Below are positions 5,836 to 59,712 of a stretch of DNA of 64,000 nt, piece after piece (the stretch's first letter is position 1; each line of letters starts with the position of its first letter). Source of the stretch: Naegleria gruberi (Eukaryota). The position numbers and the translations under genes were made by a program. The stretch lies in assembly GCA_000004985.1 (NCBI GenBank), contig GG738845.1. One strand, written 5' to 3'. The notes under the pieces were generated by a model. It searched no databases. It was given only the letters and a program-made list of their open reading frames with translations, and had not been told where the DNA came from.

Positions 5836-6450
5836 ATGTATAATAATATTCAACCATTTTTTCCAACCTCAACCCTAGTCATGATAAATACAGCAACGAT
5901 CAATCATCAAGAATGTGCAAAATATGATGTTTTATTCAACTTACAAAATACTTATTTTGCCACCTATAAGGAAGAATCAATGGAGGAGCTGTTAAAGGAG
6001 GGTTTCCAAAGAATTTCAAAAGACGGCTTTAATGTTATTGGAAATTCAAATGTCTCTAATTCTCAATTACTCCTTCCATTGGTTGGTCTATCAGACTCCT
6101 TAATCAATGTAAATACCGAAAAGCTAGAAACAATGGAAGTTTGTAATTGTCAATCCCCGATTAATAATAAGGTTGAGACTCCACCATTGATAGCTAGTGC
6201 AGGTTCTTCATCTCCAAAGAAAAAAAAAAAGAAAACGCCACCATCAGGTTTTTCAGATTTCAAATTGGAAAACCCTGTTGAGCGTAAGAGGAAAAAGCCG
6301 TCTGCAACAATAGTTGTACCTTCATCTGGAGAAGGAAGTTCTGACCAGGTTGATGGGATTGTTGAAATTGATATCTCAAAATATCACCCAAGAAGAAAGC
6401 AAAGAAATTATGACCACATGCTAGCTCAATACAAACTCACCAAAAAGTAA
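5836..6450 (+). CDS. Hypothetical protein (204 aa), K-rich C-terminus
   Basis: Single ORF with ATG in an intergenic context. No recognisable domain. Confidence 0.35.
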   Translation: MYNNIQPFFPTSTLVMINTATINHQECAKYDVLFNLQNTYFATYKEESMEELLKEGFQRISKDGFNVIGNSNVSNSQLLLPLVGLSDSLINVNTEKLETMEVCNCQSPINNKVETPPLIASAGSSSPKKKKKKTPPSGFSDFKLENPVERKRKKPSATIVVPSSGEGSSDQVDGIVEIDISKYHPRRKQRNYDHMLAQYKLTKK

Positions 6451-20900: not shown

Positions 20901-22173
20901 ATATTCTCATCCTTATTCGTCATTGTCTGACAATCTTCTGGGAGAAGAAAATTCCAAAGAAATTATCAAATCTCTGCTTGAAGAAAGTGAGAAGCGGGTG
21001 AAGTCGTCCAGTAAAACCTCTGCCGAACACACTCTAGAAATTGACTGCATATGGAAGCATGTAAAGAATTCATTGGACTGTTTTTATGATTCGTCAACAG
21101 ATAATTACAAAACTGTATTGAAAGAACTGGACTGTGAAGAATACTACAAGTTATACAATAACTTTATCAGAAAGAAAAATGCAACAATTGAACTGGAGGA
21201 ATTAGCTGAACTGCCATATTCAATTTATGAAATACTATCCGATTCCAGAATCATGGTCTCTAAGACAAGAAATAATTGTTCAGAAAATTCTGACATGTTT
21301 AGATTAATGTCTTTCTGGTTCTCCATGAGTAGTAAATGTCTTAAAAAGGTTTTGAACAGAGAAGAAATCAATCACAAAGCAGGGGTGTATTTAATGCACG
21401 AGTTTATTCATCTCCTTCATACAGTTAGAAATGTTTTATATCTATTTGATTGTTCGGAAAGAGACGTTTTGATTTACAAATTGGCTCTTCATGGATGTGC
21501 TTCGAAATTATCTAAGTTTATTAACTCTAGTGAAGAAGTAAGAAGAGAAATGGAAGATAGAATCGCGTCATATGAAGAATTGAGAACAAGAACTGAGGCG
21601 GCACTTGTGATACAGAGATTTTACCGAAAGACAAAGAGAAGAATGCAAGAAGACTTTATTCGAAAGCAAAGAACCGAATTGATAGCCCAATCACAAGCTC
21701 AAATGGTAAAGATCAGAGAATTACAAAAATCCGAGTTGACCTTTAAAGCTAGCGTGGGAAAGCAAATTGCGGACACAGGAAGAGTTCTTATCAAACAAGG
21801 TGTATCTGAACTGGATCACATTTTCAATATTCTAAAGGCGTATTTTTTATATGGAGATGATGATGATACACCCTTAACACCCTCCTCTCCAAGAACAAAT
21901 ACCTCCAGAGCTAATAGTATTATTTCACCAAACTCGCCAGTATTAACGACACCAGAAAGAAATAGATCTGGAAGCCTTTCGCCCTCGCCACCAAATCCGT
22001 TAAGGGAAAATTTTGGGGGAAGACCAAAATCAACCGTTTCAAGAGCATACAGCAAAAGGTTCTCTGAGGTTGATGTGGCAGAAATTAATGACATTCTCTC
22101 CAATACTAAAGTTTCTCCAACAGCAAGAAAAGTCTTGGAAAAGTCTTTACCCCCAAACATGACAAAAAGGTAA
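17980..22173 (+). CDS. Kinesin-like protein, N-terminal motor domain plus ~850-aa coiled-coil tail, at least 5 exons
   Basis: Exons reconstruct IKVFARCRP..., then (after an intron starting with the non-canonical donor GTTAGT) DVFNGYHSTIFVYGQTGTGK (P-loop). These are followed by ...NASSSRSHSC... (switch I), LVDLAGSE (switch II) and HIPFRDSKLTRLLQDSLGGN. A long E/K-rich coiled coil follows. Confidence 0.85.
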
Positions 22174-22264
22174 AGCAACATAGAAAATAAGCTATGGAGG
22201 TTAAAACCATTTTCTGAATAAATAATAACATATCATTTATCATTTAAAAAATATTTCGCACCTC

Positions 22265-23656
22265 ATGAAGTTGCTTCTTGCTTACTTAATTATTTTTCTA
22301 GCAGTTGTTAGTAGAGTTATTGCTTCATCAGGTTGTATTCTCAACAGAGATGGTAACTGTGGGATGACATCAAATGCCGCTGGGGAATTGCTTCTATCTG
22401 TTGATCCAAAACAACAATTTAACACTTTTATTAAATCATCATCTGTGGGAAATAATGGGGAAGTTATCTGCAGTACCCCTAATAGTTTCATTTCCAATCC
22501 GTTATGTAAGGAAAGATGGTTTAGAAAAGCACAACACGATAAACAATTTGCCTCCAATTCCCTAAAACTGAGATGTAATATTGATGTTGTTAGGGGCGAT
22601 TGTCAAATTGGAAATTTGCATTTTCCTCCAGAAAATCAATATAAGTTCTATCATAATGATAATCAAGAAACTCATATCTGTTCATCAATCCAAGGCTACT
22701 ATTCAAATCAACTTTGTAAAGAAAAATGGTTTAGAAAATTAACATTATCCCAGCACTCACTTCTTCCTACTAGTGAAACAAGCATTCCATCCTCAATTGT
22801 TTCTCATGAGGTCAATAACATTATTGCTATCAGTTCAACTTCTCAAACCCCATCTGATGTAATTGATTTAGCGGCTTCAACTACGAACAATGTTGAACTC
22901 ACCAATGAACCTCATTTTAATACTGATCTCACTCACGACTATGATATAGTTACAGAGTTGGCAGAGGCTTTTGAGAACAATGATGAAGATGATGAGTTTG
23001 ATGAATTGGAAATTGATGACTCAGACGAAACAGATGTTGATGAAGGAACTGAACTTGTTGAGGAATTACAAAGTGAGGATTCAAACGAAACAGATATTTC
23101 AGAGGAAGAGATTCAAGAAAATGCTAATGACAACACTGGAGATGATTTTAATAATGAAGAAGAAATTGACAACAAAGAAACTTATATTGAAGAGGAAGCA
23201 GAATCCGTATTTGAAATTGATGAAGAGGACAATGTTGTCCACAATGCTGCCGATAAGCCAATCCCTTCTAATGAAATTACTAATTCTTATACCAAGGAAA
23301 TTGAAAAAACACTAAAAGAAATAATTCCCTACATCAAGAACAAACCAAAAATTGTAAATTCTGTACCATATATTCAATCCGCTACAAACGTTTCTGGCTC
23401 AATTGGTAAGGTAAACATCAAAACAGTAATTAACACTGGAAATATTAAAAATAATAGACATCACCACAAAAGGATTTCCAAAAAAAACCAAAGAAAGCTG
23501 CCACGTGTGGGACGCGAGAGAAATGAAGTGAATCAAATTACTAAAGCTGTGAAAGAAATTGAAGAAAATTTGAAATCAAGAAAATATATTGAATCCAGAA
23601 AAGAAGAATTGAAGAGGAGATTTAAAGAATTCCTTCTTAATTCACTCAGAGTTTAA
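22265..23656 (+). CDS. Secreted protein with signal peptide, two Cys-containing repeats, a long acidic tract and a basic C-terminus
   Basis: N-terminus MKLLLAYLIIFLAVVSRVIASSG (signal peptide). Duplicated motif NPLCKERWFRKAQHDKQF / NQLCKEKWFRKLTLSQ. A D/E-rich segment (~aa 230-310), then a K/R/H-rich tail. Single exon. Confidence 0.55.
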   Translation: MKLLLAYLIIFLAVVSRVIASSGCILNRDGNCGMTSNAAGELLLSVDPKQQFNTFIKSSSVGNNGEVICSTPNSFISNPLCKERWFRKAQHDKQFASNSLKLRCNIDVVRGDCQIGNLHFPPENQYKFYHNDNQETHICSSIQGYYSNQLCKEKWFRKLTLSQHSLLPTSETSIPSSIVSHEVNNIIAISSTSQTPSDVIDLAASTTNNVELTNEPHFNTDLTHDYDIVTELAEAFENNDEDDEFDELEIDDSDETDVDEGTELVEELQSEDSNETDISEEEIQENANDNTGDDFNNEEEIDNKETYIEEEAESVFEIDEEDNVVHNAADKPIPSNEITNSYTKEIEKTLKEIIPYIKNKPKIVNSVPYIQSATNVSGSIGKVNIKTVINTGNIKNNRHHHKRISKKNQRKLPRVGRERNEVNQITKAVKEIEENLKSRKYIESRKEELKRRFKEFLLNSLRV

Positions 23657-23700
23657 TAATATTTATTAAGAATAACTGTCACTCTAATTGAATAAATTCT

Positions 23701-24528
23701 TTATTTGGTAATCAAGTAAGGAGTATCTTTTGGAAGGTAGGTAATATTTTTTGCATTTGATAGTGTACTTGCAATTTCCTTACTAGCTTCAATTTTTCTC
23801 AATTCAATTAAACCAGAACCTGATTTGGTCATTGCATTAGATATCATTTGAGCAGCTATGGCTTCTCCTTCAGCCAAAATAATAGCTGCCTCCTTTTCGT
23901 ATTTTGATTTTTCAACAATAAAAGCTTGTCTTTCAGCTTCTTGCTCTGCTACTTGTTTCATTTCAACAGCTCTTGTAAATTCCTTACTAAAACTCAAGTC
24001 AGTAATTGAAACATCAACCAGATCAATATGGAATTTTTGTAATGCTCTTTCTCTGACCATTTTTTGTATTTCCTTTGAAATTTGTTCTCTTCTCTGTATA
24101 ATTTCTTCAGCCTTGTATCTAGCAATAACAGCCTTCATGACTTCATTTCCGACAGATGGTAAAATACGTTCATCATAATCTCCACCAAGATCTTTATAAA
24201 TAACTGGGAGTTTTTCGACAATAGGACGATGTAAAACTCTCAAAGTAATATTTACAGTTTGTAAATCTTTTGTTCCAGTCTTGGTTGTGATTTCTCTTGG
24301 ACGAACACGTACATCAAAAAAGATTGGTTTTTGGATGAACGGAATTTTAAAGTGGGTTCCTTCCCCAGCAACATAATCATCACGAATACCACCATTTACA
24401 TAGTCCATAAGAATAGCTCTCTCTCCTCCATCCACTGTGTACAAACAAGATAATCCCAATCCTAAAACTGCTGTTGAAGCAAAGGTAGCATATGTCATGC
24501 CTTTCAAAAGTTTGTCCAAAGCTTGCAT
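23701..24528 (-). CDS. PHB1: Prohibitin (PHB1-like, SPFH/band-7 family)
   Basis: 275-aa single-exon ORF. ...GTKDLQTVNITLRVLHRP...LPSVGNEVMKAVIARYKAEEIIQRRE...AVEMKQVAEQEAERQAF... aligns along the whole length with prohibitins. The short N-terminus fits PHB1 rather than PHB2. Confidence 0.9.
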   Translation of the reverse strand: MQALDKLLKGMTYATFASTAVLGLGLSCLYTVDGGERAILMDYVNGGIRDDYVAGEGTHFKIPFIQKPIFFDVRVRPREITTKTGTKDLQTVNITLRVLHRPIVEKLPVIYKDLGGDYDERILPSVGNEVMKAVIARYKAEEIIQRREQISKEIQKMVRERALQKFHIDLVDVSITDLSFSKEFTRAVEMKQVAEQEAERQAFIVEKSKYEKEAAIILAEGEAIAAQMISNAMTKSGSGLIELRKIEASKEIASTLSNAKNITYLPKDTPYLITK

Positions 24529-24599
24529 TTTCCGAGAATATTTTTTTAGAAAATTTTGATTGAATTTTCAATCAATAAATTATTTAATAAACCAATTGT

Positions 24600-25560
24600 T
24601 TATTGCAAATGAAATGGCAAGGTAATTGATTTTCCTTTGTAATTTTCTAAATTTTCTCCAGCAAAAGACACAAGAGGAGAAATTTCACACAATTCCTTCT
24701 TGCAATCTCCAATAATGTTTGCTCCTGCTCTTTCAAGGTACTTGGTGTGGAGCACGGATACATCCTTTCTACAGGTCTCTGGTGAATCACTATTGTTTTG
24801 ATTAGGAGCGTTTTTGAGAGGGGAAAATTCAGATTCTCTTTCTACTTGGAAAATTGTAATAGAGTTGGCAAATTCAACAATGTCAAAATTGAACAATTCA
24901 AGCTTTACACCTGCTTGTTTCTTCTTTTCTCCTGAATTGATATCAATAGATTCGATATCCTTCTTTGCAATGTGATAGAGTTTGTGTGTATTTAAAATTT
25001 GAGCACATTTTTCTAAAAAGTCCAAAGTATAGAAAAAGTTAACAATATTTCCAGCATTGAATGAAAGTTGTCCAGTTGTTTGATCAACACTTTCAGCCAT
25101 TTCCTTTGTAATTTCACTGTATTCCACAACATGGTATTTTCCATTTCTCAAAGCAAAAACGCCAACTTTTTCATGAGGCTCTCTTTTTGGAACAACCTTA
25201 GTTCCAAAATCTACACAATTCTTTACGCAATGTCCAACAAATTTTGGATCTCCAACCTTAACAAGTATGTTATCGACACAATATGAATGAATATATTTGA
25301 TTCCTCTCTCCTTCATATGATCTAACATTCCATATTTTGCCAAAGCCTGGTACACTCCTCCATTACCATTTGGTGCAGTAGCTATCAAATTTTTTTCTTG
25401 CAACATTAATTTTCCGTCCATAGAAAAGCATGGAAGAGTACCTTGTTGGAAGAATAAAATTTGGTCTTGACANNNNNNNNNNNNNNNNNNNNNNNNNNNN
25501 NNNNNNNNNNNNNNNNNNNNNNAGTTCAAAGAGCTCCTTTATGGATGTTTGTGATGACAT
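24600..25560 (-). CDS. UAP1: UDP-N-acetylglucosamine pyrophosphorylase (UAP1/QRI1), interrupted by an assembly gap
   Basis: ...NGNGGVYQALAKYGMLDHMKERGIKYIHSYCVDNILVKVGDPKFVGHCVKNCVDFGTKVV... is typical UAP1. The ORF runs into the N-run at 25478-25522. Only 12 codons (MSSQTSIKELFE) lie beyond the gap. The expected ~150 N-terminal residues are missing, so the gap is larger than drawn. Confidence 0.8.
25478..25522. other. Assembly gap (45 N)
   Basis: Run of n characters. It breaks the UAP1 coding region. Confidence 0.99.
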
Positions 25561-26108
25561 TTTTTTTTAAATATTAAATAATCCCACAAAATTCTTCCAG
25601 ATGGCTTGTGGGCAGTGTTTGATTTTGCTCCCAATTCAAATGGCTGCATGATGTCGTTTATTATTGGAAATTTAATTTGGAGAATGATCATCAAACAACA
25701 AATCCCAACACAATCAACTGCCAATAAGAAATCAACTTCAATTTCTATCTACTCCGTAAATAATATGACAACCTCTTTTATTAAATTACTAGAATATTCT
25801 GACAATAAGAAAAATACACTCAACCTTATTATGTCAAATTCAAAACTCATCCAATATCTAAACTCTAGTTCCAAACACAAGTACTTTGCTTCTCCAATAC
25901 TCTTTACTCCATCACAAACTACTTTAATTACCAAACATGCATCCCTTGTTAAAATCAAAACTCACACCAGTTTTGCTATTCATTAAAGGAAATACAAGAT
26001 CCACCAAGGAAAATTAAGATATTCAAAATTACTCATTATTTATACTCTACTTAAACTTTAATTATAAAACAGGCCACAAAAGACCATTAGACATTGAAAA
26101 AGCAATAC

Positions 26109-26965
26109 TAGACTTCCGGAAAAGTCAAAAAGAAATAAAAAGGCGCCTTTTTAAAAAAGTGGTTTGAAAAATGTTTGAGCAATTTTTGAAATTTGTTTGA
26201 GCATAATTCAAGAAATGTTTAAACCTTTCCTGCACATTTATTGAAGCTTTCTTTTTCCTGATGTCAACATTTTCTTTACTGCATTTGCTGAAGTTGAAAG
26301 GTTCCCTAATCTTGCTGATTCTATTGTTGATGGAACGGAAGATGTTGAGGAAGTGGAAGAAAATCTTAATGAAACACCATATTCTGAATTAAGCATAAAA
26401 CAGGAACAAGAAAAAAGTGTGAAACAATTAAAAATCCAGAAGAGGAAGATCTGATTTGAACATCACTCCACCCAGAAAGAGAAAAAACCTGAACCTTATC
26501 AAAAAGAAAACAATCATCAAATCATCATGCCAAGAAAAGTTGAGGAGCTCAAAAGACCAGAGCTTTCAAAAGATTTCGTGATTGATGTAAAAAAATCCAT
26601 CAAAACTACAGTGACCCGAGATGGTGACATTCAAAAACCTTGGATCTCTTAAGGAATTGGTGGATTTTTTGGAAAAGGATATAGTTAAGAAAGAGAGTGA
26701 GTTCAGAAGTTTGAGGGCCCTTGGGGTTTTTTCAGCAAATACTTGAACGTTTTGAGAGTTGAGAAGTAATTAATCATTCTTGAGGAATTGTTTGAAAACA
26801 GTTTGAAAGTTGCTCAAGATTTTCTTGAACAAACTTTGGATGTGTTTCAAGTAGTTTTTAGGTAAAAAAGGCACCTTTTAGGCACCTTTTAGGCGCCTTT
26901 TTGCAAATTAGCGTGAAAGTACCTTAAAAAAGTCGACTTTTAGCAAAACTTTTTCTGGAAGTCTA
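26109..26965. mobile_element. Non-autonomous DNA transposon / MITE-like element, family A, full-length copy (~857 bp)
   Basis: Terminal inverted repeat TAGACTTCCGGAAAAGT (26109-26125) versus ...ACTTTTTCTGGAAGTCTA (26948-26965), 17/18 matching. Subterminal GGCGCC-centred palindromes (AAAAAGGCGCCTTTTT at ~26148 and tandem AGGCACCTTTT repeats at ~26868-26900). A second, truncated copy lies at 31170-31423. Confidence 0.6.
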
Positions 26966-27335
26966 CTAAAGAAAAAAATGAAAAAAAGAAAGTCTATTAA
27001 AAAAGAGTTGTACTAAGAAATCAAAAAAAGAAAATCTGAGAATATTGGTTAACTATTAATTGATCTTGAGTTAATGATGATGATTAAATATAAATGTGTA
27101 CATTATTTGTCAAACCTGTTCCAGAAAACCTTAAGGCTTCATTCTTTTGAATTGTTTATACTTTATCAACTTGACAGAAAGTACAAAAAACATCAAAAAA
27201 AAAACATTTCTAAAACCATATAAGCTTTTTATTGTGATGCAATAAATTGTCTGTTGCTTTTTACGTCATTGTATTCTTAAAGTTGACCAATTATCTTCAA
27301 GCAGCTCAAGATTTCTCCTCAAACTGACTCAGACA

Positions 27336-28185
27336 GAGGGGATGGAAAATCCTCGATCCAAATCCCACGCGGATCAGTCGGATCCAAGATTCCAATAAAA
27401 ACGTGAATCCTGGATCCGGATTATCCGATAGATTCAACACAAGGATTTTTTAAAAATTACTTAATTATTGTTGTTTACACTTGCTTTAACCGAAAAACAA
27501 TCTAGTTCTTCGTAATAAATTGTGAAATTTCTTGTAATGTCTGATAATTGGTAAGTTTCTTAGTTAACAGCAAAAGTTCTAAGCAATACTCGATACTCTG
27601 AAAGCTTATCGCTGCGGCTTAGTGCATACAATTTACCTTGTTTCAATATTATCAGTTCATCATTTAAATTAATATCTTCTGATTCATTAAATTGAGAAAG
27701 TATTTGGGAAGATAATTAACTTGTTTCTGAGCAAAGTTGTAATTGTTTTTGTTTGTCAAATCTTCTAGCTCTTACCAACATCACACGAGTACTTATTTGC
27801 AAAAGTAAGATGTCATCTTTTTCCATAAACATAGATACAAGTCTTGATTTTAATTCTTTAGCATCTTTACCAATTCCTGAGAGTGGATTTTCTAGTAAAT
27901 CATAGCTCTTTGTAGCATTAGATATTTTACAATTTGAGGGGAGAGTAAAGTAATCATCACGAATTGGACAATAGAACTTTTTCTTTTGGGTTGATTGGTT
28001 GTGGTGATGTTTCTCTTTATTTATTAACGTTTGAAATTGTTCCATTAAAAATTGGAAGTGCAATCCTGGATTATCGGTTCCATCTTTTGAAAGATTTTAG
28101 AAAAAGATTCATTGTTTATTAAAAAATAATCCTTCCCATCCTCCTCCAAAACGTGAGATTTGGCTTTAGGATTTTCCATCCCCTC
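27336..28185. mobile_element. Non-autonomous DNA transposon, family B (~850 bp) with ~35-bp imperfect TIRs
   Basis: Left end GAGGGGATGGAAAATCCTCGATCCAAATCCCACG (27336-). Right end ...CGTGAGATTTGGCTTTAGGATTTTCCATCCCCTC (-28185), a reverse complement with the first 18 nt identical. The internal 115-aa ORF (27716-28063, minus) has no transposase features. Confidence 0.6.
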
Positions 28186-28439
28186 CTTCAACACTAATTC
28201 TTCTATTTCTACTAGTACGTTAATTGCAATTACTTATTTTATAATTTTATCAACAACAAAATAAGATGTCGTTTCTGAAATACTAAGTTTATTCTATTAC
28301 ACGCGAGTAGATTAATTCGCAAGAATAATAATAATGATTGAGGATATCATTAATCAACTTTTGTATAATATATAAACTCTAATACTTCAAAGATTTATAT
28401 CCTTTAAAGCAGGTTCCAAGGTTGATTCACTCGTTGGTA

Positions 28440-28610
28440 TCTCAATCCTTGAGCTTTTAATTCATTTGTCTTATTTTATTATTTTATTATTTTGTGAGTT
28501 TAAAAACACTAATACTTCTAATAGTTGCAACTACTAGCCCAAAAAACCATCTAATCAATTCAAAAAACCTTAAAAACCATAAAAACAAAAAATACTGAAA
28601 TATCTGAAAA
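28440..28610. repeat. Dispersed repeat family C, copy 1
   Basis: ~80-85% identical to 30070-30346 (shared segments ...TCTCAATCTTTGAGCTTTTAAT...TTATTTTATTATTTTGTG...TAATAGTTGCAACTACTAGCCCA...CCATCTAATCAATTCAAAAAACC...). Confidence 0.6.
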
Positions 28611-29204
28611 CTTGATAACTAATTCTCTATAGCTTCAATCAATCTTTACATAAGCAACATCAATCACACCACCAAAATCGCAGTAAGCGTTAAGCTTATG
28701 TAGGTTTATTGTAAAAACAATAAAATAAGTGTCAACTAACAAATTTCTCATTTGCAAAAATGGTACATTTCAATAGAAATTTCGGATTTAGTAAGTCAAT
28801 AATTTTTTAATAATTTATTATTTTATTGGATTTCATTTGATCATATCTAATTTGGTGAGGTCAAATGACATTTTCATTTGGATAGCTTTTGTAGTATTGT
28901 TTGGTAGTGGATATCACTATCAAGAAAAGATAGGATCATTTGTTGAGCTGGTTTTTTAATCAAATATGTGAAAATTCTAACAATTTTATATATGATTTGT
29001 GTGTTTATTTAATTTTTTAAATTTAAAGCACTGCTAATGCCAAGGCGATTAGTGATTGATTTTGAAAGCAATTAATAGATCATCTGAATTTTCTATTGAC
29101 AGAAACGTATTTTAGTAGTTCAGTTCTACCTAGTTGTAATAAACACCGGAAATTTATTTATGTTTTTAACATTAAAAGCTGAAAGTAGTAAAATGATGAT
29201 ATTT

Positions 29205-29236
29205 GAAATATATATATATACACATATATATATATT
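29205..29236. repeat. (AT)n/(ATAC) microsatellite
   Basis: atatatatatacacatatatatatat. Confidence 0.8.
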
Positions 29237-30069
29237 TTAATTGATGTTTGACAAACATATCCACCACATGTATGAAAATTCGTATTTTTCATTGAAATAC
29301 TAATAAATTTCTATTTTAATTACTGCCAATTCAAACAGGCAACAAACGACACACATTATCACATTATCAGACATTGTAATAGCAAATGCTAAACCTTTTG
29401 TTGTTTATAATATGTGAAATCTGTAGACAGAAAAAAATGAAACACAGTTTTTAAGAAGAAATCATCGAAAAACTCAAGTAAAATGAAGAATAGAAAATCA
29501 CTTTTAAGGGGTAAAAAATTTAATCTGAATAGATAAATGAATTTGCGAGGAATTATGATGAAAAGGATGTAGTGAGAATGGGATTTGATAAAGAGATAAG
29601 TAAAAAACATGATGAGGAGTATGATGAAGAATAAAAGAGAAATGATTTTTCTAACATAGATAAATATAATTTTTGTTCACATATATTCACCCAATAATTT
29701 ATCAAAACAATAAAATACCCCAAATCAATTCTCATATCACAACAAAATAAATTGTAAAAATATACAAAAATTATATTCAAACTCGAATTTAGATCTACAG
29801 TATTTCAGAAACGACACTTTATGTTGTTGATAAACCTATAAATTTGGATTTTTAGTTTTTTACAATTTTATATGATTTGTGTTTATTTAAAATTTACGGT
29901 TAGAGAGGAATTTTGGATATTATAGTACACTCGTTGTTGAGGTGTTCTTTTTGTCATCATCAGTAAGTGTAATCAGTATGGAGATTCTAGTTGGATATTA
30001 TTGACAGCAATTACAAAAAGTACTTGTTATTATTATAAGACAACAATGGATTAGTGGGATAGTTAAGTG

Positions 30070-30346
30070 GTGTCTCAATCTTTGAACTTTTAATCTATTT
30101 GTCTTAATTTATTATTTTATTATTTTGTGGATTTAAAAACAGAGATTTATCCAAAAAGCCAAGCCAAAAATTCAACCAGATTGTCCTTTTTAAAAAGCCA
30201 TATCCAAAAAAAGCGGTTTGGGATAGATATTGGATATTAATATACTCTCCTTCTAATAGTTGCAACTACTAGCCCATTAAACCATCTAATCAATTCAAAA
30301 AACCATAAATTAGAAATCCAATAAAAACACAAAATAATAAAATAAT
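30070..30346. repeat. Dispersed repeat family C, copy 2 (MITE-like, with a ~95-bp internal insertion relative to copy 1)
   Basis: Homologous to 28440-28610. Ends TTATTTTATTATTTTGTGG (~30108) and CACAAAATAATAAAATAATG (~30327-30346) are inverse complements, i.e. TIR-like. Confidence 0.55.
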
Positions 30347-31130
30347 GTTATTATTATTTGTTTGAGAATTAAAAATTTCAATTTATACGAGACAACAATT
30401 TGTTCTTAAGAGAATAAAATTTGAAAACCATATTCCACACAATATTGTTTTATTGTTGGAAAGTTTGATACTATTTTTCTAAATAATAACAAACTCAGTA
30501 ATTAGTGGAGATGTTATTAATTAACTAATTGATAAAATTAATCGGTGAAAGATAATAGAACCTAATATTTTGACCATATATTCTGGAATAATCGTTCAAA
30601 TACAGCAATACACAACCAACGTTTACCTTTTCAATATCTCTCCTTTACGAATTAGACAAAAGCATGCCTGTACTAGTTATAAACAATCATAAATAGTTTT
30701 CAAAGAAAACCAAGTTGGTGATGTTTAATTCGAAAGTGTATTGAAGAAAGTGTTTACATGAATTACTTAGAGAATTGAAATAATTAAAAAAGGAAAAACA
30801 AACCAAGCCTTATACAAATATTTAAAATTAATTCATCATGCATTTTATATGTATGATGATGTGGATTTAAAAACGAAACAATCTACCAACACTTTACAAA
30901 TAGTAAAATCAAAACTAAAAAATCATTAGAAATGTTGGAGGAGTGGGATGATATTTTTGAGGATATCAATAATACAAATCTTAGTATTACCATTTTATTT
31001 TCATTGTCTATATGTTTTGCCTACACTTTTGTATTATCGAATTATTTAGAGAAAAAGAATTGTAATTTTCAAAATATATATATTAACGATTGTATTTACA
31101 ATGGTAATACAAAGTAAATGGATTTTGTTT

Positions 31131-31423
31131 GGCGGAGGAGTCGTGTGGGATTTGGATAACAGATTTTCCATCGCATCATGCTAAGAAAAGTTGAGGCCTA
31201 AAAGACCAGAGCTTTCAAAAGATTTCTTGATTGATGTAAAAAATCCATCAAAACTAGGATGGTGACATTTAAAAACCTTGGATCTCTAAGGAATTGGTGG
31301 AAAAGCATATAGTTAAGAAAGAGAGTGAGTTTAGAGGTTTGAAGGCACTTAGGGTTTTTTCAGAAGTAATTAATTATACTTGTAAAAAAGGCGCCTTTTA
31401 GTAAAACTTTTTACGGAAGTCTA
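31131..31423. mobile_element. Compound TE fragment: solo family-B-like TIR (31131-31172) abutting a 5'-truncated, internally deleted family-A copy (31170-31423)
   Basis: 31131-31172 (GGCGGAGGAGTCGTGTGGGATTTGGATAACAGATTTTCCATC) is the reverse complement of the family-B TIR consensus (GATGGAAAATC...ATCCAAATCCCAC...). 31170-31423 aligns to 26524-26965 of copy A with two internal deletions. It ends with the same ...AAAAAGGCGCCTTTTAG...CTTTTTACGGAAGTCTA terminus. Confidence 0.55.
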
Positions 31424-31772
31424 AAATAACCATTCAAACTTTAAACAACAAACACCAAAATTCAAAAACACCTCTTTAATACTTTTGACAATAATATTAT
31501 TAAATGTATTACAAAGGTTTTTGAATTCACAAGCCCATTAAATTTCAAAATCAAGTTGTAAATGATGGTGAATGGTATTTCTGATATTTCGCACACTTGG
31601 TCATTTTTATCGTTGAGTTATTATTTATCTTTCCACCTTTCTATTTCGGCATTCCCTTCCAATTAGACTCTAGTTTTGTCCAATCATCACGTCCAATAAT
31701 AAATAATAAAATAATATTTTTATTTTAAAAAAAAAATCTCCAACAATATCCATTCATCACCAACCACAAAAG

Positions 31773-37931: not shown

Positions 37932-38699
37932 ATGAAAACCTTCCCATCCTCCACCATTTTACTCGTATTGGTGGCCCTTTTAGCTACCGTTTTGATGGTC
38001 AACGCCATTGGAGAAAATAGAAACTACATTCAAAACTTAAAGAACAAGAGAGAAATTAAATTCAATAATCCAGCAAGCACTATTGGCGGTCTTGTTCAAC
38101 ATTTAGGCTCCGTTTTGAAGGGATATCCATCAAAATTGGAATCAATTTCTTCATTGGATCTCTTTGAAAGACCATTAGTTGGTATTGTCCTTTCTCCATC
38201 AAAATCTAACGAAGTCAATGATGTTATTATCAAGAAGATTCAAAACTTGTTTGAAAATGATGTTGTTACTACCGTCTCATCTTTGAAGGAAATTAATTTT
38301 GCTACTATCCAATCTGGTATTGTTGTTGTTACCCATGTTGAAGTAAGTTTAAATTGTTGTGGATATTTCTTACGCATTCAATAGAATGTTGACAATGAAA
38401 TGAAGTTGGCTCCAGAAAGATCCGAAGTTGTTGTTTTGAATTTGGAAAAGAATCTCCAAGTAATGACACCTGCCCAAAGATTACTCTTGTCTGTTTATGA
38501 TATTAACAATACTACCACCAATAGTACAAACGTCACTGTGATTACTGACTTTGAACGTGCTGATTATCAAATGCAATTGTGGGTTTGGGTCTTTACTATT
38601 GTTTGTGTCATTTTGGCTATTTTTGCAGTCAACAAGATTGACTATTCTGCCGACCAAATGTTGTATGCACTTGAAATGACAAAGAGTCACCACGACTAA
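37932..38699 (+). CDS. Small secreted/type-I membrane protein (signal peptide plus C-terminal TM), 2 exons
   Basis: MKTFPSSTILLVLVALLATVLMVNA signal peptide. Exon 2 (from ~38393) has N-glycosylation sequons (NNTTTNSTNVT) and the TM segment LWVWVFTIVCVILAIFAV. Confidence 0.5.
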
Positions 38700-40690: not shown

Positions 40691-43600
40691 TGAGCACAAC
40701 CGAAGCAAAGGTAATTATCAACAATTTTTATTTTAATATTTATTAGATCACACCAGGAAACCAAGGTACAACAAGCAAAAGGTACAGCCAAGAGAGACTT
40801 CTTGATTGATATTGAGAAGAAATATCAACAAGAATGGGAAGATAATCACATTTATGAATCTTCGGCCAGCGATTTGGAAAACAAGGAAAAATTCTTTGCT
40901 ACTTTCCCATATCCATACATGAACGGTAGACTCCACTTGGGTCACGCTTTCTCTATGACAAAAGCTGAATTCCAAACTCGTTTCCAAAGACTTTTGGGAA
41001 AGAATGTTTTGTTCCCATTCGGGTTCCACTGTACAGGTATGCCAATTGCTGCTTGTGCTGATAGATTGAAGAGAGAAATTGAAGATTTTGGAAATCCACC
41101 TAAATTCCCAGATGTTCAAGTTAAAAAAACAGATGATGACGAAAAAGTTGAGGATGAATCTGCTGAAGTTAAAACTGGTGAATATCAATGGAATATTATG
41201 AGAAAGAACGGATTGTCAGATGAAGATATTGCTAAATTTGCTGATGCCAAATATTGGTTGGAATATTTCCCACCACTTGCCAAGAAGGATCTTCAAAGGT
41301 TTGGAGTTGCTTGTGATTTCCGTCGTAGTTTTATCACAACAGATTTGAATCCGTATTATGATTCTTTCATTCGTTGGCAATTTAACCAATTGAAAGAACA
41401 AGGAAGAATTAGTTTTGGTAAACGTTACAGCATTTTCTCTCCAAAGGATAACCAACTTTGTGCAGACCACGATAGAGCTGTTGGTGAAGGTGCTAAGCCA
41501 CAAGAATATACAGTTGTAAAATTGTTCTTGCAAAAACCATACCCAAAGGTTTTGGAACACTTGCAAGATAAGAGAGTTTATTTGGGAGCTGCCACTTTGC
41601 GTCCAGAGACAATGTTTGGACAAACAAATTGTTGGCTTTTGCCTGATGGAGAATATGGCGCTTTTGAAACTAATAATGGTGAAGTTATAATTTGTACTGC
41701 AAGAGCTGCCAGAAATCTTGCTTGGCAAGAATTGAGTCCAAGACCTGGTGAAGTAGTTCAACTTGCCAAATTTTTGGGAGCTGATTTGATGGGAGCTGCT
41801 GTTGATGCACCAATGTCTCCACTCAAAACTATCCATGTTTTGCCAATGATGTCAATTTCTACAAGAAAAACAACTGGTGTTGTCACATCTGTGCCTAGTG
41901 ATGCACCTGCTGATTTTGCAGCTCTTCAAGATTTGAAGAACAAGGCTGATCTCAGAACAAAATTCAACATCAAAGAAGAATATCTTCATGATCCTATTCC
42001 AATTATTGAAGTTCCAGAGTATGGTACTTTGTGTGCTCCAGCTCTCTGTGAAAAATACAAGATTAAATCTCAAAACGATAAGGATGGTTTGGAAAAAGCT
42101 AAGGATGAAGCTTATCTTCTCGGATTTAGTAAGGGTGTATTTGTAATGGAAGGTGAATTCAAGGGAATGTCAGTTAAGGACACAAAGAACAGAATTCGTC
42201 AAAAATTACTAGATGAAGGAATGGCTGTTCCATATGCTGAACCAGACAAGGAAGTTATCAGTAGATCAGGTGACAGATGTGTTGTCAGTTTGACTGATCA
42301 ATGGTATTTGGCCTACGGTGAAGAAGAATGGAAGAATGTTGTAATGAATCATCTTAAGACTAAATTCCATGTCTATAACTCTGCCACTATCAATGAACTT
42401 GAATCAACAGTGGAATGGTTGAAAGAATGGGGATGTTCAAGATCATATGGTCTTGGTACTAAGCTCCCATGGGATGAACAATTCTTGATTGAATCATTGA
42501 GCGATTCTACAATTTACATGGCATACTATACTGTTGCTCATCTTTTGCAAGGTGGAGTTTTGGATGGATCTGGTCAAAGTCCAGCAGGTGTTAAACCAGA
42601 GCAATTGACTGACGATATTTGGAGTTACATCTTCCATGGTAAGCCTCTCACTTCAACCAATGGAATTAACCAAGAAGTATTGGATTCATTGAGAAAGGAA
42701 TTCCAATACTGGTATCCTGTTGATTTGCGTGTCAGTGGTAAGGATTTGATTAAGAACCATTTGACCATGTTCCTTTATAACCATGCTGCTATCTTCCCAG
42801 ATCAAATGCCAGGATCTATTTTTGCTAACGGTTATGTTATGGTAAACGGTGAAAAGATGAGTAAGCAAGCTGGTAACTTTTTGACTTTGCAAGGTGTTAT
42901 CGAAATGTATGGCGCTGATGCTACTAGACTTGCTCTTTGTGACAGTGGTGATACTCACGATGATGCTAACTTTGAGCAAAATAATGCCAACAGTGCTGTT
43001 CTCAAGCTCAATACCTTCTTGGAATGGATAGAAGAGACACTCACCAAGGGTGATATGAGAGATGAAGAAAGTGAATACCTCTTTGCTGACAAGATCTTTG
43101 ATGCCAAGATGAATTTGTATGTTACTGAATCAAAGAAACACTACGAGGCTATGGTTTATAAGGAAGTTTTCAAGACTGTTTGGGTTTCAATGCAAGATGC
43201 TCTTTCTAAGTATATTGAAACTATGAAGAGAGATTCTATCAAATTGCACAAGAAGCTTATTTTGAGATTTATTGAACTCCAAAGTATTATTCTTTCACCT
43301 GTACTTCCTCACTGTACTGAACATATTTGGAAGGAATATCTTAAGAAGGACGGATCAATTGTTAACACTAAATGGCCTGTAGTACCAGCTGCTGATGAAT
43401 CACTCTTGCTTAGTGATGAATATCTTAAAGATGCTCTCCACAAATTCCGTCAATCTTTCCAAAAGGAATCCAAGGCCAAGAAGAAGGCTCTTAAGGCTTA
43501 TATTTATGTTGCTGACAAGTATTTGGATTGGCAAATTAAGAGTTTGGAAATTCTTTCAAAGCACAAAGAATCTTTCCATGATAAGGAAAAGGAAGATGCC

Positions 43601-43891
43601 GCTATGAAGGTTATTTCTCAAGAGCTTAAGGAATTTATGAAGTTCAAGCCAATGCCTTTTGTAGCCCTCAAGAAGGAACAATACAAAAAGGATGGTGATT
43701 CGGCTTTGAGCACAGAGTTGCCATTTAATGAATTTGAACTTCTCAACTCAAATATTAACCTTATTAAGGCTTGCTTTGGAGATATTGAAGTTGAAATTTA
43801 TTCACTTTCTCAAACATATCCAGATCCTTTGAAGAGAGCTACCAGAGCTCAACCAATGGATCCTTCATTTGGTGTTGAATGGGAAAAATAA
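40691..43891 (+). CDS. LARS1: Cytoplasmic leucyl-tRNA synthetase (archaeal/eukaryal-type LeuRS), 2 exons
   Basis: ATG 40691 (MSTTEAK) plus a short intron, then the 1029-aa ORF. HIGH-class motif region PYPYMNGRLHLGHAFS, KMSKS motif as GEKMSKQAGN, CP1 editing and anticodon-binding regions, all in LeuRS order. Confidence 0.9.
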
Positions 43892-53573: not shown

Positions 53574-55094
53574 ATGCTCAAGTCTAGTGGATTCATATTC
53601 AACCCTCGAGTCATTGCCAATAATGTCATCGGAATCACAAGGAAGAGTAACAATTCACCATTCATGAATTGTTATAATGCTCCATCAAGAGTGATTAGTG
53701 CCTTGTATCATTTTAACATTATTGCGAACAAGAAGTTTTCCTCTTTTACCAGTGGAGGAGGAGCCGATAGAACTCAACTAACTATTTATGAACAATTGAG
53801 ATCAAGAACATCATCTCATAGAGAAGATAATGAAGATAATGAAGAAAGAGTAAAAGAAAAACCAAGAGTTGTCAATAAGAATCAGAGGTATTTGGACCGA
53901 AATGAAAAGAGACATTCCAGACAAGCTCACGATGATGGAAGCAGAAGAAGAGAAGGAAGGGATAGAGACTACCATAGTAGAGACAGAAGAAGGAAACAAA
54001 ACCATTTCGAAGAAGATGATCCTTGGGCTGAAAAGCCAAAAGTAAAGAAATATTTACCGCCTCCTGAGCTCACTAGAAACAAATACATCACAGATGACTT
54101 GGAGCATCATTTTTCGAATAGCAAACCTAAGACTAAGGTTCCAGCCTTCTTTGCAAATATTTCTAACTCTGCACAAGATGTACAAAAGATGAAATCTAAT
54201 GTAATCAACCATATTGCAGATCATAAAATGAAAAGGGGACACATTCAGAACATCTCACACAAGAACTCAACAACGAAAATTGAAACCCCAATTGTAGATA
54301 AGATTGATTCTGAGCTAAGTGAATTATTAGGAGGTGAAGATATTGAACTTTCACAAAATTCTAAAAGATTTGAAATTATTGATAGTATCGCCAATCTTGA
54401 AGATAATGCTCTCTTTGATGAAATTGAAAATGAAGAAATAGATCTCTCTCAAATCAACCTATCTCCTGAAGAAAATCGTTCAAGACTTCAAACTTTTTAC
54501 TTTTCAACTCTTCCTGAATACATAGAAGAATGTTTATTGAACATTTTGAAAAATCAAGACTCAATGACAGACAGTGAATATTACAAATATCTCAATATGG
54601 AAAGGTTGTACATTACCAGTGCAAAACTTTCTGAAGATTATAGAACAATAACGTTAAACTATAGATTGTTGGTAAGAGAAGGTATTGATGAAATGGGAGA
54701 GGAAGCTAACCAAAGAGATGCTCAAATTATTGATAAATTATTTGCCACCCAATTTGTCAAACCAACACTAGAAACCTTTGAGAATATGCATGGTAGAGTG
54801 ATGTTGCGTGATTTTGAAAAGCCAAAGACTATCAAACTCAATTTTAAGGGAATCAAATTGCATGAACCAAGTATTTTTGACGAGCCATTACCAAATGTTA
54901 AACCTGGTGAGAGAAGACCACACATTAACCCATTTGCAGAACTGCCATATTTTACAGGAAAACCAATGAGTGGTGAAAGAGCAATTAACATTCTCAATAA
55001 CTTGGGTATTAGCATCCCAGACGATTCAGAAGCAGCAGAAAAAAAGAACTCAGATAAACCAACCACAACGAGAAAACAAAGAGAAACAAAATAA
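53574..55094 (+). CDS. Hypothetical 506-aa protein, R/D/E-rich N-terminal region
   Basis: Single ORF. RS/RD-like low complexity (SRRREGRDRDYHSRDRRRK). No recognised catalytic motif. Confidence 0.45.
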   Translation: MLKSSGFIFNPRVIANNVIGITRKSNNSPFMNCYNAPSRVISALYHFNIIANKKFSSFTSGGGADRTQLTIYEQLRSRTSSHREDNEDNEERVKEKPRVVNKNQRYLDRNEKRHSRQAHDDGSRRREGRDRDYHSRDRRRKQNHFEEDDPWAEKPKVKKYLPPPELTRNKYITDDLEHHFSNSKPKTKVPAFFANISNSAQDVQKMKSNVINHIADHKMKRGHIQNISHKNSTTKIETPIVDKIDSELSELLGGEDIELSQNSKRFEIIDSIANLEDNALFDEIENEEIDLSQINLSPEENRSRLQTFYFSTLPEYIEECLLNILKNQDSMTDSEYYKYLNMERLYITSAKLSEDYRTITLNYRLLVREGIDEMGEEANQRDAQIIDKLFATQFVKPTLETFENMHGRVMLRDFEKPKTIKLNFKGIKLHEPSIFDEPLPNVKPGERRPHINPFAELPYFTGKPMSGERAINILNNLGISIPDDSEAAEKKNSDKPTTTRKQRETK

Positions 55095-55875: not shown

Positions 55876-58800
55876 ATGATCAACCGACATCATTATGCTT
55901 TCATAGGTGATTCCAGAAAGAATGGAAGTGAGTACAATCCAATACAAATGTTATTTTAATATAGATCTTTAGAACCTTATGAGCCAAAGAAAGGATCAGA
56001 CATAAACTTACCACCATTAGGGGTTAGAAAAGAGAAGGAAAGTGCAATTCTTGAAGCAGATGAATCTTCTCGGAATGATGTTTTTAAATTCAATAGAGAT
56101 GATGTATTTAATTTTGATATTAAGGATATGAGAATATCAAGCACCAGGGAGGTACGTCAAAACCCAAATCTGCTCCAGGCCAATGCTCCCCCACCAAAGA
56201 GAACTAAAGTCACGTTCAAAGGTATGTGAGGAATTGATACTTTAGTACTTAAATACAACCAGATGCGGACGAATCAATGCAAGAGAGTGCTATTGCTGAA
56301 GGAATTTCTGTTGAGGATTGGATGAAGGAAAATGAAAATATTTATGATGTTAAATTTAGGAAGGATGAAAAAACAAAACAACAGGGAAGAAGGTCTCTCA
56401 CCAGACCAGAGTCACAATCATCGTTGGATTCTAGTACATTAAAGGAAGGAAACACTAAACTACCTTATTTGAAGGATGTATTCATGAAGGAACGGGCTCC
56501 ATCAAAGCAATTAGTTCATTATTTGGATATTATTGGAGGAGAAAAACAAGTGAATACAAAAAAAATACTTAAAGTGGCTCCAGATGACGAGGAAGAAATA
56601 GCAAAGTTAAAAACTGGTGATGATGCTGTTGCCTTTTTCTCGAAAGCAGGAAAAAGTAGTAGGTATTATTTAAACTATTTGGATAACTTTGATTTTTTAA
56701 AGCTGCTGTCAAGTTTGTATATTTAAATAGAGCAGATTCAAATGGAGTTGATTACCGACCATATGATCTAGTTGTAGTTTCTAAAAGTGACACTAACCCA
56801 GAATATTTTACCATGTCTTCGACAGGTGTTGTACATATTTGCCCAGGTCAACCTACTGAGTACATGTCCCTCTCTGAATGGATGAAAGAATCAACAATGT
56901 TTAACGTTCTAAGAAGAATTAGATTTTTCAAGTACTATCTTGTTCATAAGTGCTTTAGACTCTGGTATCAAAGTAAGTTGACAACCTTAGTCATTCAATT
57001 ATCTAACGTATTTATCCAGATGCAAGATATCTTAAATATAGTAAGAAGAGAATGGATTTGGCAAGAAATTTCTTCCTTGCCAAGAAAACTTTCTCTTCTT
57101 CTGTCATGAAGATTCACAAACTTTCACACGACTTGCAATATACTCCAATTATGGACTTGAGAGATAAAGAAAATTCAAATGAGCCATCAGTAACTATTGA
57201 ACAGTTCCATGAGGCTCAAAAAGAATTGAGATCAAAATCATCTAAAACCTTTGACGAAATTATTGAGAAAATGGAGGAAATTTTGGTACAACTTTGTGAG
57301 GATGTTACTTCTAGGTCAAGAGTTCCAGATATGAATGCTTCTGAAAATATTGAAGCCTATCTCAGTGGTAAAATACCTACTCTTGAAGCTGAGGATGATT
57401 TCACAGCTAAAAAATCCAAATCTATGGTTGAGGCCCAAGAGGAAGAAGAAAAGAGACAGAGAGCCCTTAAAAAAGCAAGAGAAGAGGCGGATATGCTTGG
57501 TAATTTCATTAGAGTTTCCGACTATATGGCTGTAGAATCTTTGGTAACTTTATCAAAGAAGATTCTCGACAAATTCAAGGTTACTCTCCAAGAAACCAAG
57601 TCAATACTTTTCCTTGTAAACTTACTTTTCAAATCCGATGGTTCTGACATTGTTTTTGAACCATCTGAGGGTGCAATAATGCATGTTCTTCAATCCAACT
57701 CTGATGAAATTGTAACAACTGTCAGTCAAGTTCCAAGACTTTTATACATGCGTAAATTCAAAGTTTATTTTGATAATCTGGATAAATTCAAGATGGAAGA
57801 ACATTTAAGACAACTTCATGTTGGAAAAGTATTGCAGAGAGATGAGGTATTTAACTCAATCAAGTCTCAAATAGAAATGATGTTACACAATGATTTCTTG
57901 AAGGCGTTAGAATATGGAAAGGATTTCGAAGGATTGAAACATTGGTTCAAGTTTGGAAAAGAATGGGATGATAAGTATGCAGAAAAGAGACACACTGTCC
58001 AAGAATTTACTGAAAAAATTAAGCATGTCAATGATGCTCTCCTTGAGTTGAAGAGAATGAACTTTGTGCAAGAAAAAGGAATTCTTTTTATTGACAGCAA
58101 ACAGTTAAGAAATACTTTGCAACCAATTATGGAGAGTATTTACGAGCAAATTAAACTTTCTATAAGTGTTACATCCCGAGAAATGTGTCTAGAACTTAAT
58201 AAGAAGTTCATTGAGAGAGTAAGAATCATGAAGGAAGAGCCAACCAAGCTGAAGGACTTTGCCAAGTTCATAGATAACCACAATAAGATCAGAAAGGAAA
58301 CTCGTCAACTCATGATAGCGGCTGATGAAGTTGAAAAGATGAATGAACTTGCTGCAAAGAACAAGGTTGAAATGGACAGAGCAGACCAAGTTGCTTTGGA
58401 ATCATTGAAAGAAATTAAGGATGAGTTTTTGCAAGTATTCAAAAAGGCAGAACTCTACAAGGAGAATAATATGGCTTCAAAGAAAAGCGAGTTGGAAGAA
58501 AATGTTCAAAAGGTTAGTGATGACCTTTTGGACATGATGACAGTGCTCAGAAATCCTCCATTCATTACAGCTGATGCTGACCCAGTTGATGTTTTGGAAA
58601 GACTTTCTAGACTTGGTGAGGAGATTGCCCAATTTAAAGAAAAAACAGAAATCTACAAAGAGTACCAAATTCTACTTGAGGCACCAGTTAAGGAATGGAC
58701 CAATTTAACAGGCGCTGAAACTCAATTCAATGTTAGAAGTCAAATTTGGAAGGCTATAGATGAATTTTCAAAGAAGTCTGACCTTTGGGATACCACTGAC

Positions 58801-59712
58801 ATCCAAAAACAAGATATTAGTGACATTGAGCAAGAGGTTGAAAAATATTATCAACTTGGAATTGAAATGGCCAAATTTGGAGAGGATGATGTTGTAAAGT
58901 TGTTGAAGAAAACTGTGCAGGTTTGGAAAGATAATTTACCAATAATTTTAATGATTGGTAATAAGGACTTGAAGCCTCATCACTGGGAACAAATATTCAA
59001 AGGTATGAATAAGGAATCTGCCAAAGGAGCTTCCTATACACTTAGACAATTGGGTACTCTTGGTATTTTTATGTACAAAGATTTGATAACAGACGTTTCA
59101 AAAGCAGCAACAGGAGAAGCTCAATTATTTAAAAGCTTGGAAGTTATCGCTCAAACCTGGAGAGAAACTGATTTTGATTTCAAAGCTCTTCCACATAGAA
59201 AAGATTTTTACATATTGAATCAAACTGATAATATTCAAATGCTCTTGGATACTCATAAGAGAACCCTCAGAGAAATGTTGGATTCAAAATATGTTTCTGT
59301 AATTAGAACTAGAGTTGAGGATTGGATAAAAAAGTTGGAAAATGTAACTGTAATATTCCAAGAGTGGCTTTCTTGCCAGAGAAGACTTTTATCTTTGGAA
59401 TACATTCTCACATCTGATCTCATCAAGAAAGAGAATCCAGAAGATGTTGCCAAATACATTTCTGTCAGTTCAGAATTCAAAGATTTAATAAGCAAAACAA
59501 GTCTTAATAGAAATGTGCTGGTAGCTACTCATGAGGAAGGAATTTTAGAAACATTTGGTCGTTGGAATATGGCTTTTGATGAAATTGAGAGGAACGTAAA
59601 AACCTCAGAGGAGGGAGCTGCTGCTCTTGCTGAAGAAAGCGAGGACGACCAAGATGTTTCCTCTGAATCTGATTTGGATGAGCATGCCTACGATGAAGAG
59701 GATGAGTATTAA
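55876..59712 (+). CDS. Dynein heavy chain N-terminal (tail + start of linker) protein lacking the AAA+ motor. A truncated DHC-like gene, at least 5 exons.
   Basis: Exon ~56727-56970: ...YRPYDLVVVSKSDTNPEYFTMSSTGVVHICPGQPTEYMSLSEWMKESTMFNVLRRIRFFKYYLVHKCFRLWYQS (DHC_N1-type motif). Within the 886-aa terminal ORF: ...ILMIGNKDLKPHHWEQIFKGMN... and ...VIFQEWLSCQRRLLSLEYILTSDLIKKENPEDVAKYISVSSEFKDLI.... These match the conserved start of the dynein linker (DHC_N2: NPxLRxRHWxQ...; EEWLxxQxxWLYLEPIFSSEDIxxQ). The ORF terminates at 59712 in an acidic tail (SEDDQDVSSESDLDEHAYDEEDEY), not in AAA1. Confidence 0.6.

Follow-up and report, generated by a model that had tools for sequence, protein, structure and literature searches.

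What kind of gene, if any, encodes a product with a hydrophobic N-terminus, a repeated cysteine motif and long segments of opposite charge, and what would such a protein do? The question is raised by an open reading frame in a 64,000-nucleotide stretch of Naegleria gruberi DNA (contig GG738845.1; hereafter the window). A preliminary description, made from the letters of the DNA, had proposed a secreted effector-like protein of the kind found in symbiotic or pathogenic fungi.

The locus is a genuine protein-coding gene, constrained and carrying an internal duplication (Table 1). Its start is the first ATG downstream of an in-frame stop, and the probability that an open frame of its length, 475 codons, arises by chance at the base composition of the window is about 2e-17; across 50 shuffled versions of the window the longest open frame reached 194 codons. 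In frame, the codon log-likelihood comes to -3.74 per codon, inside the -3.67 to -3.84 span of 11 neighbours, with clearly worse scores off frame, gene-like usage in every segment and a coding log-likelihood ratio of 96. The gene sits between a kinesin gene (ending at 22173) and a convergent prohibitin gene (ending at 23701), from which it is separated by spacers of 91 bp and 44 bp, respectively. A splice fusion to the upstream kinesin was rejected: the kinesin stop codon falls within a donor-like GTAAAG site, but no in-phase AG acceptor leads into the frame studied here. The start context, cacctcATG, is atypical in having C at -3, where nine of nine other genes examined have A. A second sequence of the locus comes from an environmental contig, ERR1078381 (1845 bp), which spans prohibitin and the final 139 codons of the gene with one substitution and an intact frame, a copy too similar to inform on constraint.

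Table 1. Positions of the gene and of its observed and predicted segments in the window
Feature	Position	Strand	Basis
Complete single-exon coding sequence, 463 codons plus TAA stop	22265..23656	+	ORF listing, coding statistics, chance expectation
Predicted cleavable signal peptide MKLLLAYLIIFLAVVSRVIA, residues 1-20	22265..22324	+	hydrophobicity, AF2 helix, -3/-1 rule
4-Cys module, copy 1, residues 23-99 (Cys 24, 32, 69, 81)	22331..22561	+	alignment
Conserved motif NPLCKERWFRK, residues 78-88, at predicted helix start	22496..22528	+	alignment, AF2
4-Cys module, copy 2, residues 103-170 (Cys 104, 113, 139, 151)	22571..22774	+	alignment
Conserved motif NQLCKEKWFRK, residues 148-158, at predicted helix start	22706..22738	+	alignment, AF2
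Ser/Thr/Asn-rich linker without basic residues, residues 166-240, predicted disordered	22760..22984	+	composition, AF2
Polyanionic tract, residues 241-335, 43/95 Asp/Glu (45%)	22985..23269	+	composition
Polybasic patch RHHHKRISKKNQRKLPRVGRERN, residues 397-420, dibasic KR402, KK406, RK410	23453..23524	+	composition
C-terminal Lys/Glu/Arg-rich amphipathic helices, residues 416-462	23510..23650	+	AF2

The gene appears to be missing from the reference annotation, listed in UniProt as UP000006671. The exact protein is absent among approximately 15 billion public protein sequences, a collection that does contain nearby N. gruberi proteins (RefSeq entries XP_002683120, 122, 126, 129 and 453). Plus-strand RefSeq models are numbered consecutively along the scaffold, with XP_002683120 corresponding to the ORF at 5836, XP_002683122 to the helicase UAP56, XP_002683126 to leucyl-tRNA synthetase (LeuRS) and XP_002683129 to the ORF at 53574. 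The interval between UAP56 and LeuRS therefore leaves three numbers (XP_002683123-125), and it holds four plus-strand coding candidates: kinesin, the gene described here, dynamin and a small gene at 37.9 kb. Three free numbers for four candidates fit, though indirectly, this gene being the one that the annotation missed. Its unusual start context possibly contributed to the miss. The N. gruberi genome is compact, at about 41 Mb with 15,711 predicted genes (PMC6125883).

We examined the N-terminus for evidence of secretion. The protein has a single hydrophobic segment, residues 1-20, in the N-terminal sequence MKLLLAYLIIFLAVVSRVIASS (KD19 exceeds 1.6 only where the 19-residue span starts at residues 1-9), in agreement with the signal peptide that had been called from the sequence. 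Its best 12-residue hydrophobicity is 3.14, compared with at most 1.6 in eight non-secretory neighbours, and another signal-peptide-like protein in the window has a core value of 3.25. The h-region is short, small residues occupy -3/-1 (V-I-A / A-S-S), and AF2 models the segment as a helix with pLDDT 72-81. By this heuristic call the N-terminus fits a cleavable signal peptide, and the -3/-1 rule would place the cut between MKLLLAYLIIFLAVVSRVIA and the SS that follows it. Only two N-glycosylation sequons are present in the protein.

All eight cysteines are confined to the region just after the hydrophobic segment, even in number and regularly spaced. They fall into two tandem modules with spacings C-x7-C-x36-C-x11-C in copy 1 and C-x8-C-x25-C-x11-C in copy 2, which are 40% identical. 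Local alignment of one half against the other scored 80, whereas shuffled sequences (n=2000) scored 23.3 +/- 4.2 and none reached 80 (0/2000), confirming the earlier report of a duplicated N[PQ]LCKE[RK]WFRK motif, found at residues 78-88 and 148-158. The full consensus common to both modules is SNxLCKE[RK]WFRK. Between the copies pS is 0.73, essentially saturated; within the consensus motif pN is 0.15 and pS 0.65, while in the remainder of the module pN is 0.48, and all four cysteine positions are retained in both copies. Saturated synonymous sites alongside a preserved motif and preserved cysteines indicate that the duplication is old and that the cysteines and motif are under selection. To judge from this divergence, the gene is neither a young de novo ORF nor a decaying one. 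A search of the window in six frames found no further copy of CKE[RK]WFRK. Modelled by AF2 without an alignment, the Cys domain had a pLDDT of about 30, both within the whole protein and by itself, and both motifs were placed at helix starts.

The remainder of the protein is built of segments with strongly contrasting composition. The Ser/Thr/Asn-rich linker has AF2 pLDDT below 50 and unassigned secondary structure. The Asp/Glu-rich tract claimed in the preliminary description spans residues 241-335 and contains 17 D, 26 E, 2 K and 0 R. It is the most extreme acidic tract among the 26 ORFs of the window, of which two others reach 26-28 D/E per 60 residues; such tracts are thus common in the N. 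gruberi genome, including in intracellular proteins. The basic C-terminus, likened earlier to a nuclear localisation signal (NLS), needs a correction of place: the string HHHKRISKKNQRKLPRVGRERN is indeed present, at residues 399-420, but it is not the very C-terminus, as the protein continues for 43 more residues of Lys/Glu/Arg-rich helix. When a protein is secreted, such a run of basic residues could equally be a dibasic processing region or a polyanion-binding one. AF2 without an alignment modelled C-terminal helices at residues 416-437 and 439-462 (pLDDT 67-81), and these, with the signal helix, are the only confidently modelled parts of the protein. Heptads are only partly regular in the tail, where 8/16 a/d positions are hydrophobic. 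The three zones differ sharply in pI, which is 8.6 for the Cys head, 4.05 for the Ser/Thr-rich and polyanionic middle and 10.4 for the tail; the mature protein would have a mass of about 50 kDa and a pI of 4.8.

The claim that the protein lacks recognisable homology withstood every search. There were 0 matches in a word-indexed full-length search of 5.8 billion clusters and 0 in an exhaustive phmmer search of 1.84 billion representatives. Pfam was queried with the complete sequence and separately with the Cys domain and the C-terminal region; up to an E of 10 it returned noise only (DnaA_N at E 0.014 among it), and nothing was found in NCBIfam with the protein or in PDB sequences with the Cys domain and a two-repeat profile. 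Relatives were likewise absent from a tblastn scan of JGI metagenomes and from a scan of viral contigs. A degenerate DNA pattern for CKE[RK]WFRK gave 62 matches in metagenome contigs, all attributable to chance, with flanking stops and no alignment beyond the motif. A scan of prokaryotes with the repeat profile picked out two Blautia loci at 32 bits, with E-values relative to pre-filtered candidates only; both encode AraC-type regulators sharing just the 9-mer NPLCKERWF, a coincidence.

Closer to N. gruberi, we looked for a relative beside prohibitin and found none at two loci of N. fowleri or at the loci of N. lovaniensis and Willaertia magna, which have prohibitin alone in common with the window. 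This limited overlap is consistent with the low level of synteny published for N. gruberi and N. fowleri (PMC6125883). One analysis counted 626 gene families specific to N. gruberi (PMC6125883), and with so many species-specific families an orphan secreted protein is unremarkable. A search of the literature on proteins of the Naegleria cyst wall or secretome, on a cyst-wall proteome or encystment dataset, and on metagenome project PRJEB11402 returned nothing relevant. As far as these searches reach, the gene is lineage-restricted, and the N-terminal features make it quite probable that its product enters the secretory pathway.

We then compared the protein with known secreted systems of similar layout. 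Cyst-wall lectins of amoebae (Jacob and Jessie of Entamoeba; Luke, Leo and Jonah of Acanthamoeba) and spore-coat proteins of Dictyostelium combine a signal peptide with tandem short Cys modules of the disulfide type bearing aromatic residues, have low-complexity spacers that are Ser/Thr-rich or acidic, and are each restricted to a single lineage; the N. gruberi protein shares all of these features. It differs from the cyst-wall lectins in having no similarity to Pfam chitin- or cellulose-binding modules and a 4-Cys spacing that matches none of them, and neither the cyst-wall lectins nor the spore-coat proteins end in a basic helical tail as it does. Its four cysteines per module (x7-8 / x25-36 / x11) depart from the 6- and 8-Cys patterns of CBM14, CBM18, Jacob-type 6-Cys and CBM49-type domains, and Pfam returned none of these profiles. 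Precursors of cathelicidins and defensins have the same order of parts and basic cleavage sites at the junction, where the N. gruberi protein has dibasic pairs. The N. gruberi protein, however, has no homology to them, is far larger, has a far longer acidic tract and ends in a Glu-rich, weakly cationic helix; neither Pfam nor PDB gave a match to a cathelin-like pro-domain. A saposin-like 6-Cys domain of the naegleriapore type was also absent, with no SapB/saposin match in Pfam and a different cysteine pattern. Granin-like and matrix-type acidic secretory proteins such as chromogranins and SIBLING proteins likewise join a signal peptide and an N-terminal disulfide region to long polyanionic disorder with multiple dibasic sites, but these are metazoan families without sequence relation to this protein, and the likeness is an analogy. 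Since all profile-based membership tests were negative, the protein is a member of none of these families. It resembles, in architecture only, the lineage-restricted secreted Cys-repeat wall and coat proteins of other amoebae and, more loosely, antimicrobial-peptide precursors and granins.

Our best explanation, which we advance tentatively, is that the product belongs to an extracellular, surface or cyst-wall matrix, in a structural or adhesive capacity, and is not a host-directed effector. On this proposal, residues 1-20 would serve as a cleavable signal peptide, and the head would consist of two tandem, anciently duplicated 4-Cys modules with two presumed disulfides each. Basic, and with many aromatic residues near the invariant LCKE[RK]WFRK helix start, the head is taken as the putative ligand-binding part. 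The disordered spacer of about 170 residues, first Ser/Thr-rich and then polyanionic, could act as a hydrated cation-binding extender. The polybasic patch and the 45-residue amphipathic helical tail may provide self-association or electrostatic attachment to an anionic surface such as a membrane, a polysaccharide of the wall or the acidic tract of the same protein. The disulfides and the oligomerisation are predictions, and a specific part in the cyst wall or in adhesion is a conjecture from the architecture. Several observations count against the proposal, namely the atypical start, the unmodelled Cys domain, the presence of just two sequons, the partial heptads and the frequency of acidic tracts in intracellular proteins. 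A specific matrix or adhesive role is graded lower, as a possible but doubtful assignment suggested by the order and composition of the parts.

The order of parts also invites comparison with a processed pro-protein, in which a kexin/furin-type cut at the dibasic sites around residues 402-411 would free a cationic C-terminal peptide with antibacterial, membrane-active or signalling activity. The acidic tract would then be an intramolecular neutralising pro-piece, as in defensin and cathelicidin precursors, and the Cys head would serve in sorting or as a pro-domain. A signal peptide is followed by a Cys-containing pro-region, an anionic segment and a cationic C-terminus, with KR402, KK406 and RK410 clustered exactly at the transition from acid to base; N. 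gruberi is a bacterivore, and a bacterivorous organism would plausibly use such molecules. The putative peptide itself fits less well. The C-terminal helices carry nine Glu and are weakly cationic (net charge +1 to +2 per 20 residues past residue 420), and their hydrophobic moment is modest, at most 0.6, with values of 0.6-0.7 only in the non-helical patch. Negative charge, at about -45, greatly outweighs the cationic charge, no cathelin, defensin or saposin-like family was matched in Pfam, and the strongest conservation lies in the Cys modules rather than in the tail. We regard processing of this kind as unlikely.

A protein that is not secreted at all would account for some of the same features. 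Translation might start at Met34, or the N-terminal helix might act as an anchor, and the product would be a nuclear or nucleolar acidic-basic protein with zinc-binding Cys4 modules. An acidic tract, an NLS-like polybasic patch and a helical tail form a layout common in nucleolar and chromatin proteins, and several clearly intracellular proteins of the window have similar acidic runs. Met1 lies in a poor context, with C at -3, Met34 follows a G at that position, and each module does contain four cysteines. Met1, however, is the first ATG of the frame and leads into a textbook hydrophobic core, and a start at Met34 would remove Cys24 and Cys32, both conserved in repeat 2. The cysteine spacings of x7/x8 and x11 differ from those of zinc-finger knuckles (CxxC or Cx4C), and Pfam gave no match to zinc-finger or nuclear-protein families; a Cys4 zinc-finger profile and CxxC/Cx2-4C knuckles were both lacking. 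Together, these observations make a nuclear protein a rather improbable reading.

About equally improbable is a more far-reaching version of the secreted protein, in which the 4-Cys modules would constitute a new disulfide-rich fold restricted to the N. gruberi lineage. The gene, missed by annotation, would encode the precursor of a new class of secreted amoebal factor; its polyanionic tract would mask the basic tail until proteolysis or cations released it, and the tail would then bind bacterial or wall polyanions.

The effector reading had been framed around a symbiotic or pathogenic fungus. Its appeal lies in the signal-peptide-like N-terminus, the NLS-like polybasic patch, the cysteine repeats and the lineage specificity, and small secreted Cys-rich effectors of fungi and oomycetes with NLS-like motifs do share secretion, cysteines, lineage specificity and a basic patch with this protein. 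Under this reading a symbiont or pathogen would secrete the protein and deliver it to the interior of a host cell, with the basic segment serving there as a nuclear localisation signal. To our knowledge, there is no host, host nucleus or delivery system for an NLS-bearing effector of N. gruberi, and we know of no translocation motif for its lineage. The window is nuclear DNA of N. gruberi, in which five proteins match N. gruberi RefSeq entries at 100% identity: LeuRS (ORF 40802-43888, matching a protein on a 1.56-Mb scaffold), prohibitin (23701-24528, minus strand), the spliced UAP56 helicase and two hypothetical proteins. The next-best LeuRS matches come from other Naegleria, Willaertia and Acrasis. 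N. gruberi itself, a heterolobosean amoeboflagellate, is free-living and non-pathogenic (PMC6125883), and no homologue occurs in the proteome of the pathogenic N. fowleri or near its prohibitin locus. Nor is the protein small: it has 463 aa, most of it acidic, whereas effectors usually have fewer than 300 aa. The effector reading is largely refuted by the identity of the organism, and we consider it very improbable. Effector reasoning does not transfer to a free-living amoeba, and the organismal frame is corrected here.

No more credible is a spurious or decaying ORF without a functional product, which would explain the absence from the N. gruberi protein set, the atypical start context and the lack of homologues but runs against a chance of about 1e-17 for such an open frame, gene-like in-frame codon usage throughout, cysteines and a motif conserved between repeats despite saturated synonymous sites, and a frame that stays intact over the 139 codons covered by the second, environmental N. 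gruberi sequence.

The finding is real but ordinary, of modest practical value, and no long-standing open question turns on it. Through it the N. gruberi reference annotation gains a gene that it apparently lacked, and there is one more example of an old, constrained and taxonomically isolated protein that is probably secreted. If the product is a component of the cyst wall or of adhesion, as the preferred matrix reading would have it, it may serve as a possible marker for encystment or surface biology in Naegleria, where protein-level knowledge is poor.

RefSeq plus-strand models of N. gruberi are numbered consecutively along the window. Between UAP56 and LeuRS there are four plus-strand coding candidates (kinesin, the ORF for the predicted secreted Cys-repeat protein, dynamin and a small gene at 37.9 kb) but only three unassigned RefSeq numbers, and one gene of this interval therefore seems to be absent from the reference annotation. 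The gene left out is most likely the Cys-repeat ORF. The small gene also encodes a strongly signal-peptide-like N-terminus (MKTFPSSTILLVLVALLATVLMVNA...) and probably includes a second exon; its single-ORF product was absent from the protein collection. Further along the same strand, ENA, not NCBI, supplies the only record of an 886-aa ORF product, in a metagenome contig. Directly upstream of this ORF are open frames that look coding, and the N. gruberi reference model at this locus is probably a longer multi-exon gene.

Features of the window and their RefSeq accessions
Feature	Window position	Strand	RefSeq
ORF	5836	+	XP_002683120
UAP56		+	XP_002683122
LeuRS		+	XP_002683126
ORF	53574	+	XP_002683129
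Donor-like site with kinesin TAA stop	22168-22176	+	
Cys-repeat ORF	22265-23656	+	
Start context of Cys-repeat ORF	22250-22267	+	
N run (50 bases)	25473-25522		
AT-rich stretch (~6 kb)	25600-31700		
Second small gene	37932-38696	+	
Its probable second exon	38385-38696	+	
Frames upstream of 886-aa ORF	55960-57106	+	
886-aa ORF	57052-59712	+	

The start context of the Cys-repeat ORF is cacctcATG, which places C at -3. In each of the nine other window genes examined this position is A, most of them reading aaaaaATG. The kinesin stop sits within AG/GTAAAG, which resembles a splice donor. Fusion of the two genes by splicing was nevertheless ruled out because, on reading through the sequence, no acceptor leads from this site in phase into the Cys-repeat ORF.

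The exact 9-mer NPLCKERWF of the first motif also occurs in AraC-type regulators of Blautia spp. (loci L069, 3001-3186, and L070, 3001-3114). The remaining cysteines are not in common; these regulators were rejected as relatives, and the shared 9-mer is a chance hit of the pattern-prefiltered search that returned it.

An 1845-bp metagenome contig (ENA ERZ929261; Logan ERR1078381; project PRJEB11402), compared with window 23235-25079, is nearly identical to N. gruberi NEG-M, showing one substitution within its first 1317 bp and, beyond them, an indel near 24552 in the prohibitin-UAP intergenic spacer. That sample therefore contains N. gruberi-like DNA; a literature search for the project gave no identification. 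The N run breaks the UDP-N-acetylglucosamine pyrophosphorylase gene, and the AT-rich stretch (GC 26-32%), in an otherwise tightly packed region, is almost devoid of open frames with coding potential.

Prohibitin itself keeps 82-93% identity in Naegleria and Willaertia, here the loci of N. fowleri (L003, L067), N. lovaniensis (L068) and Willaertia magna (L004). Compared with window 13-35 kb, none of these loci has a prohibitin neighbour in common with N. gruberi: synteny around the gene is wholly broken between N. gruberi and all four loci.
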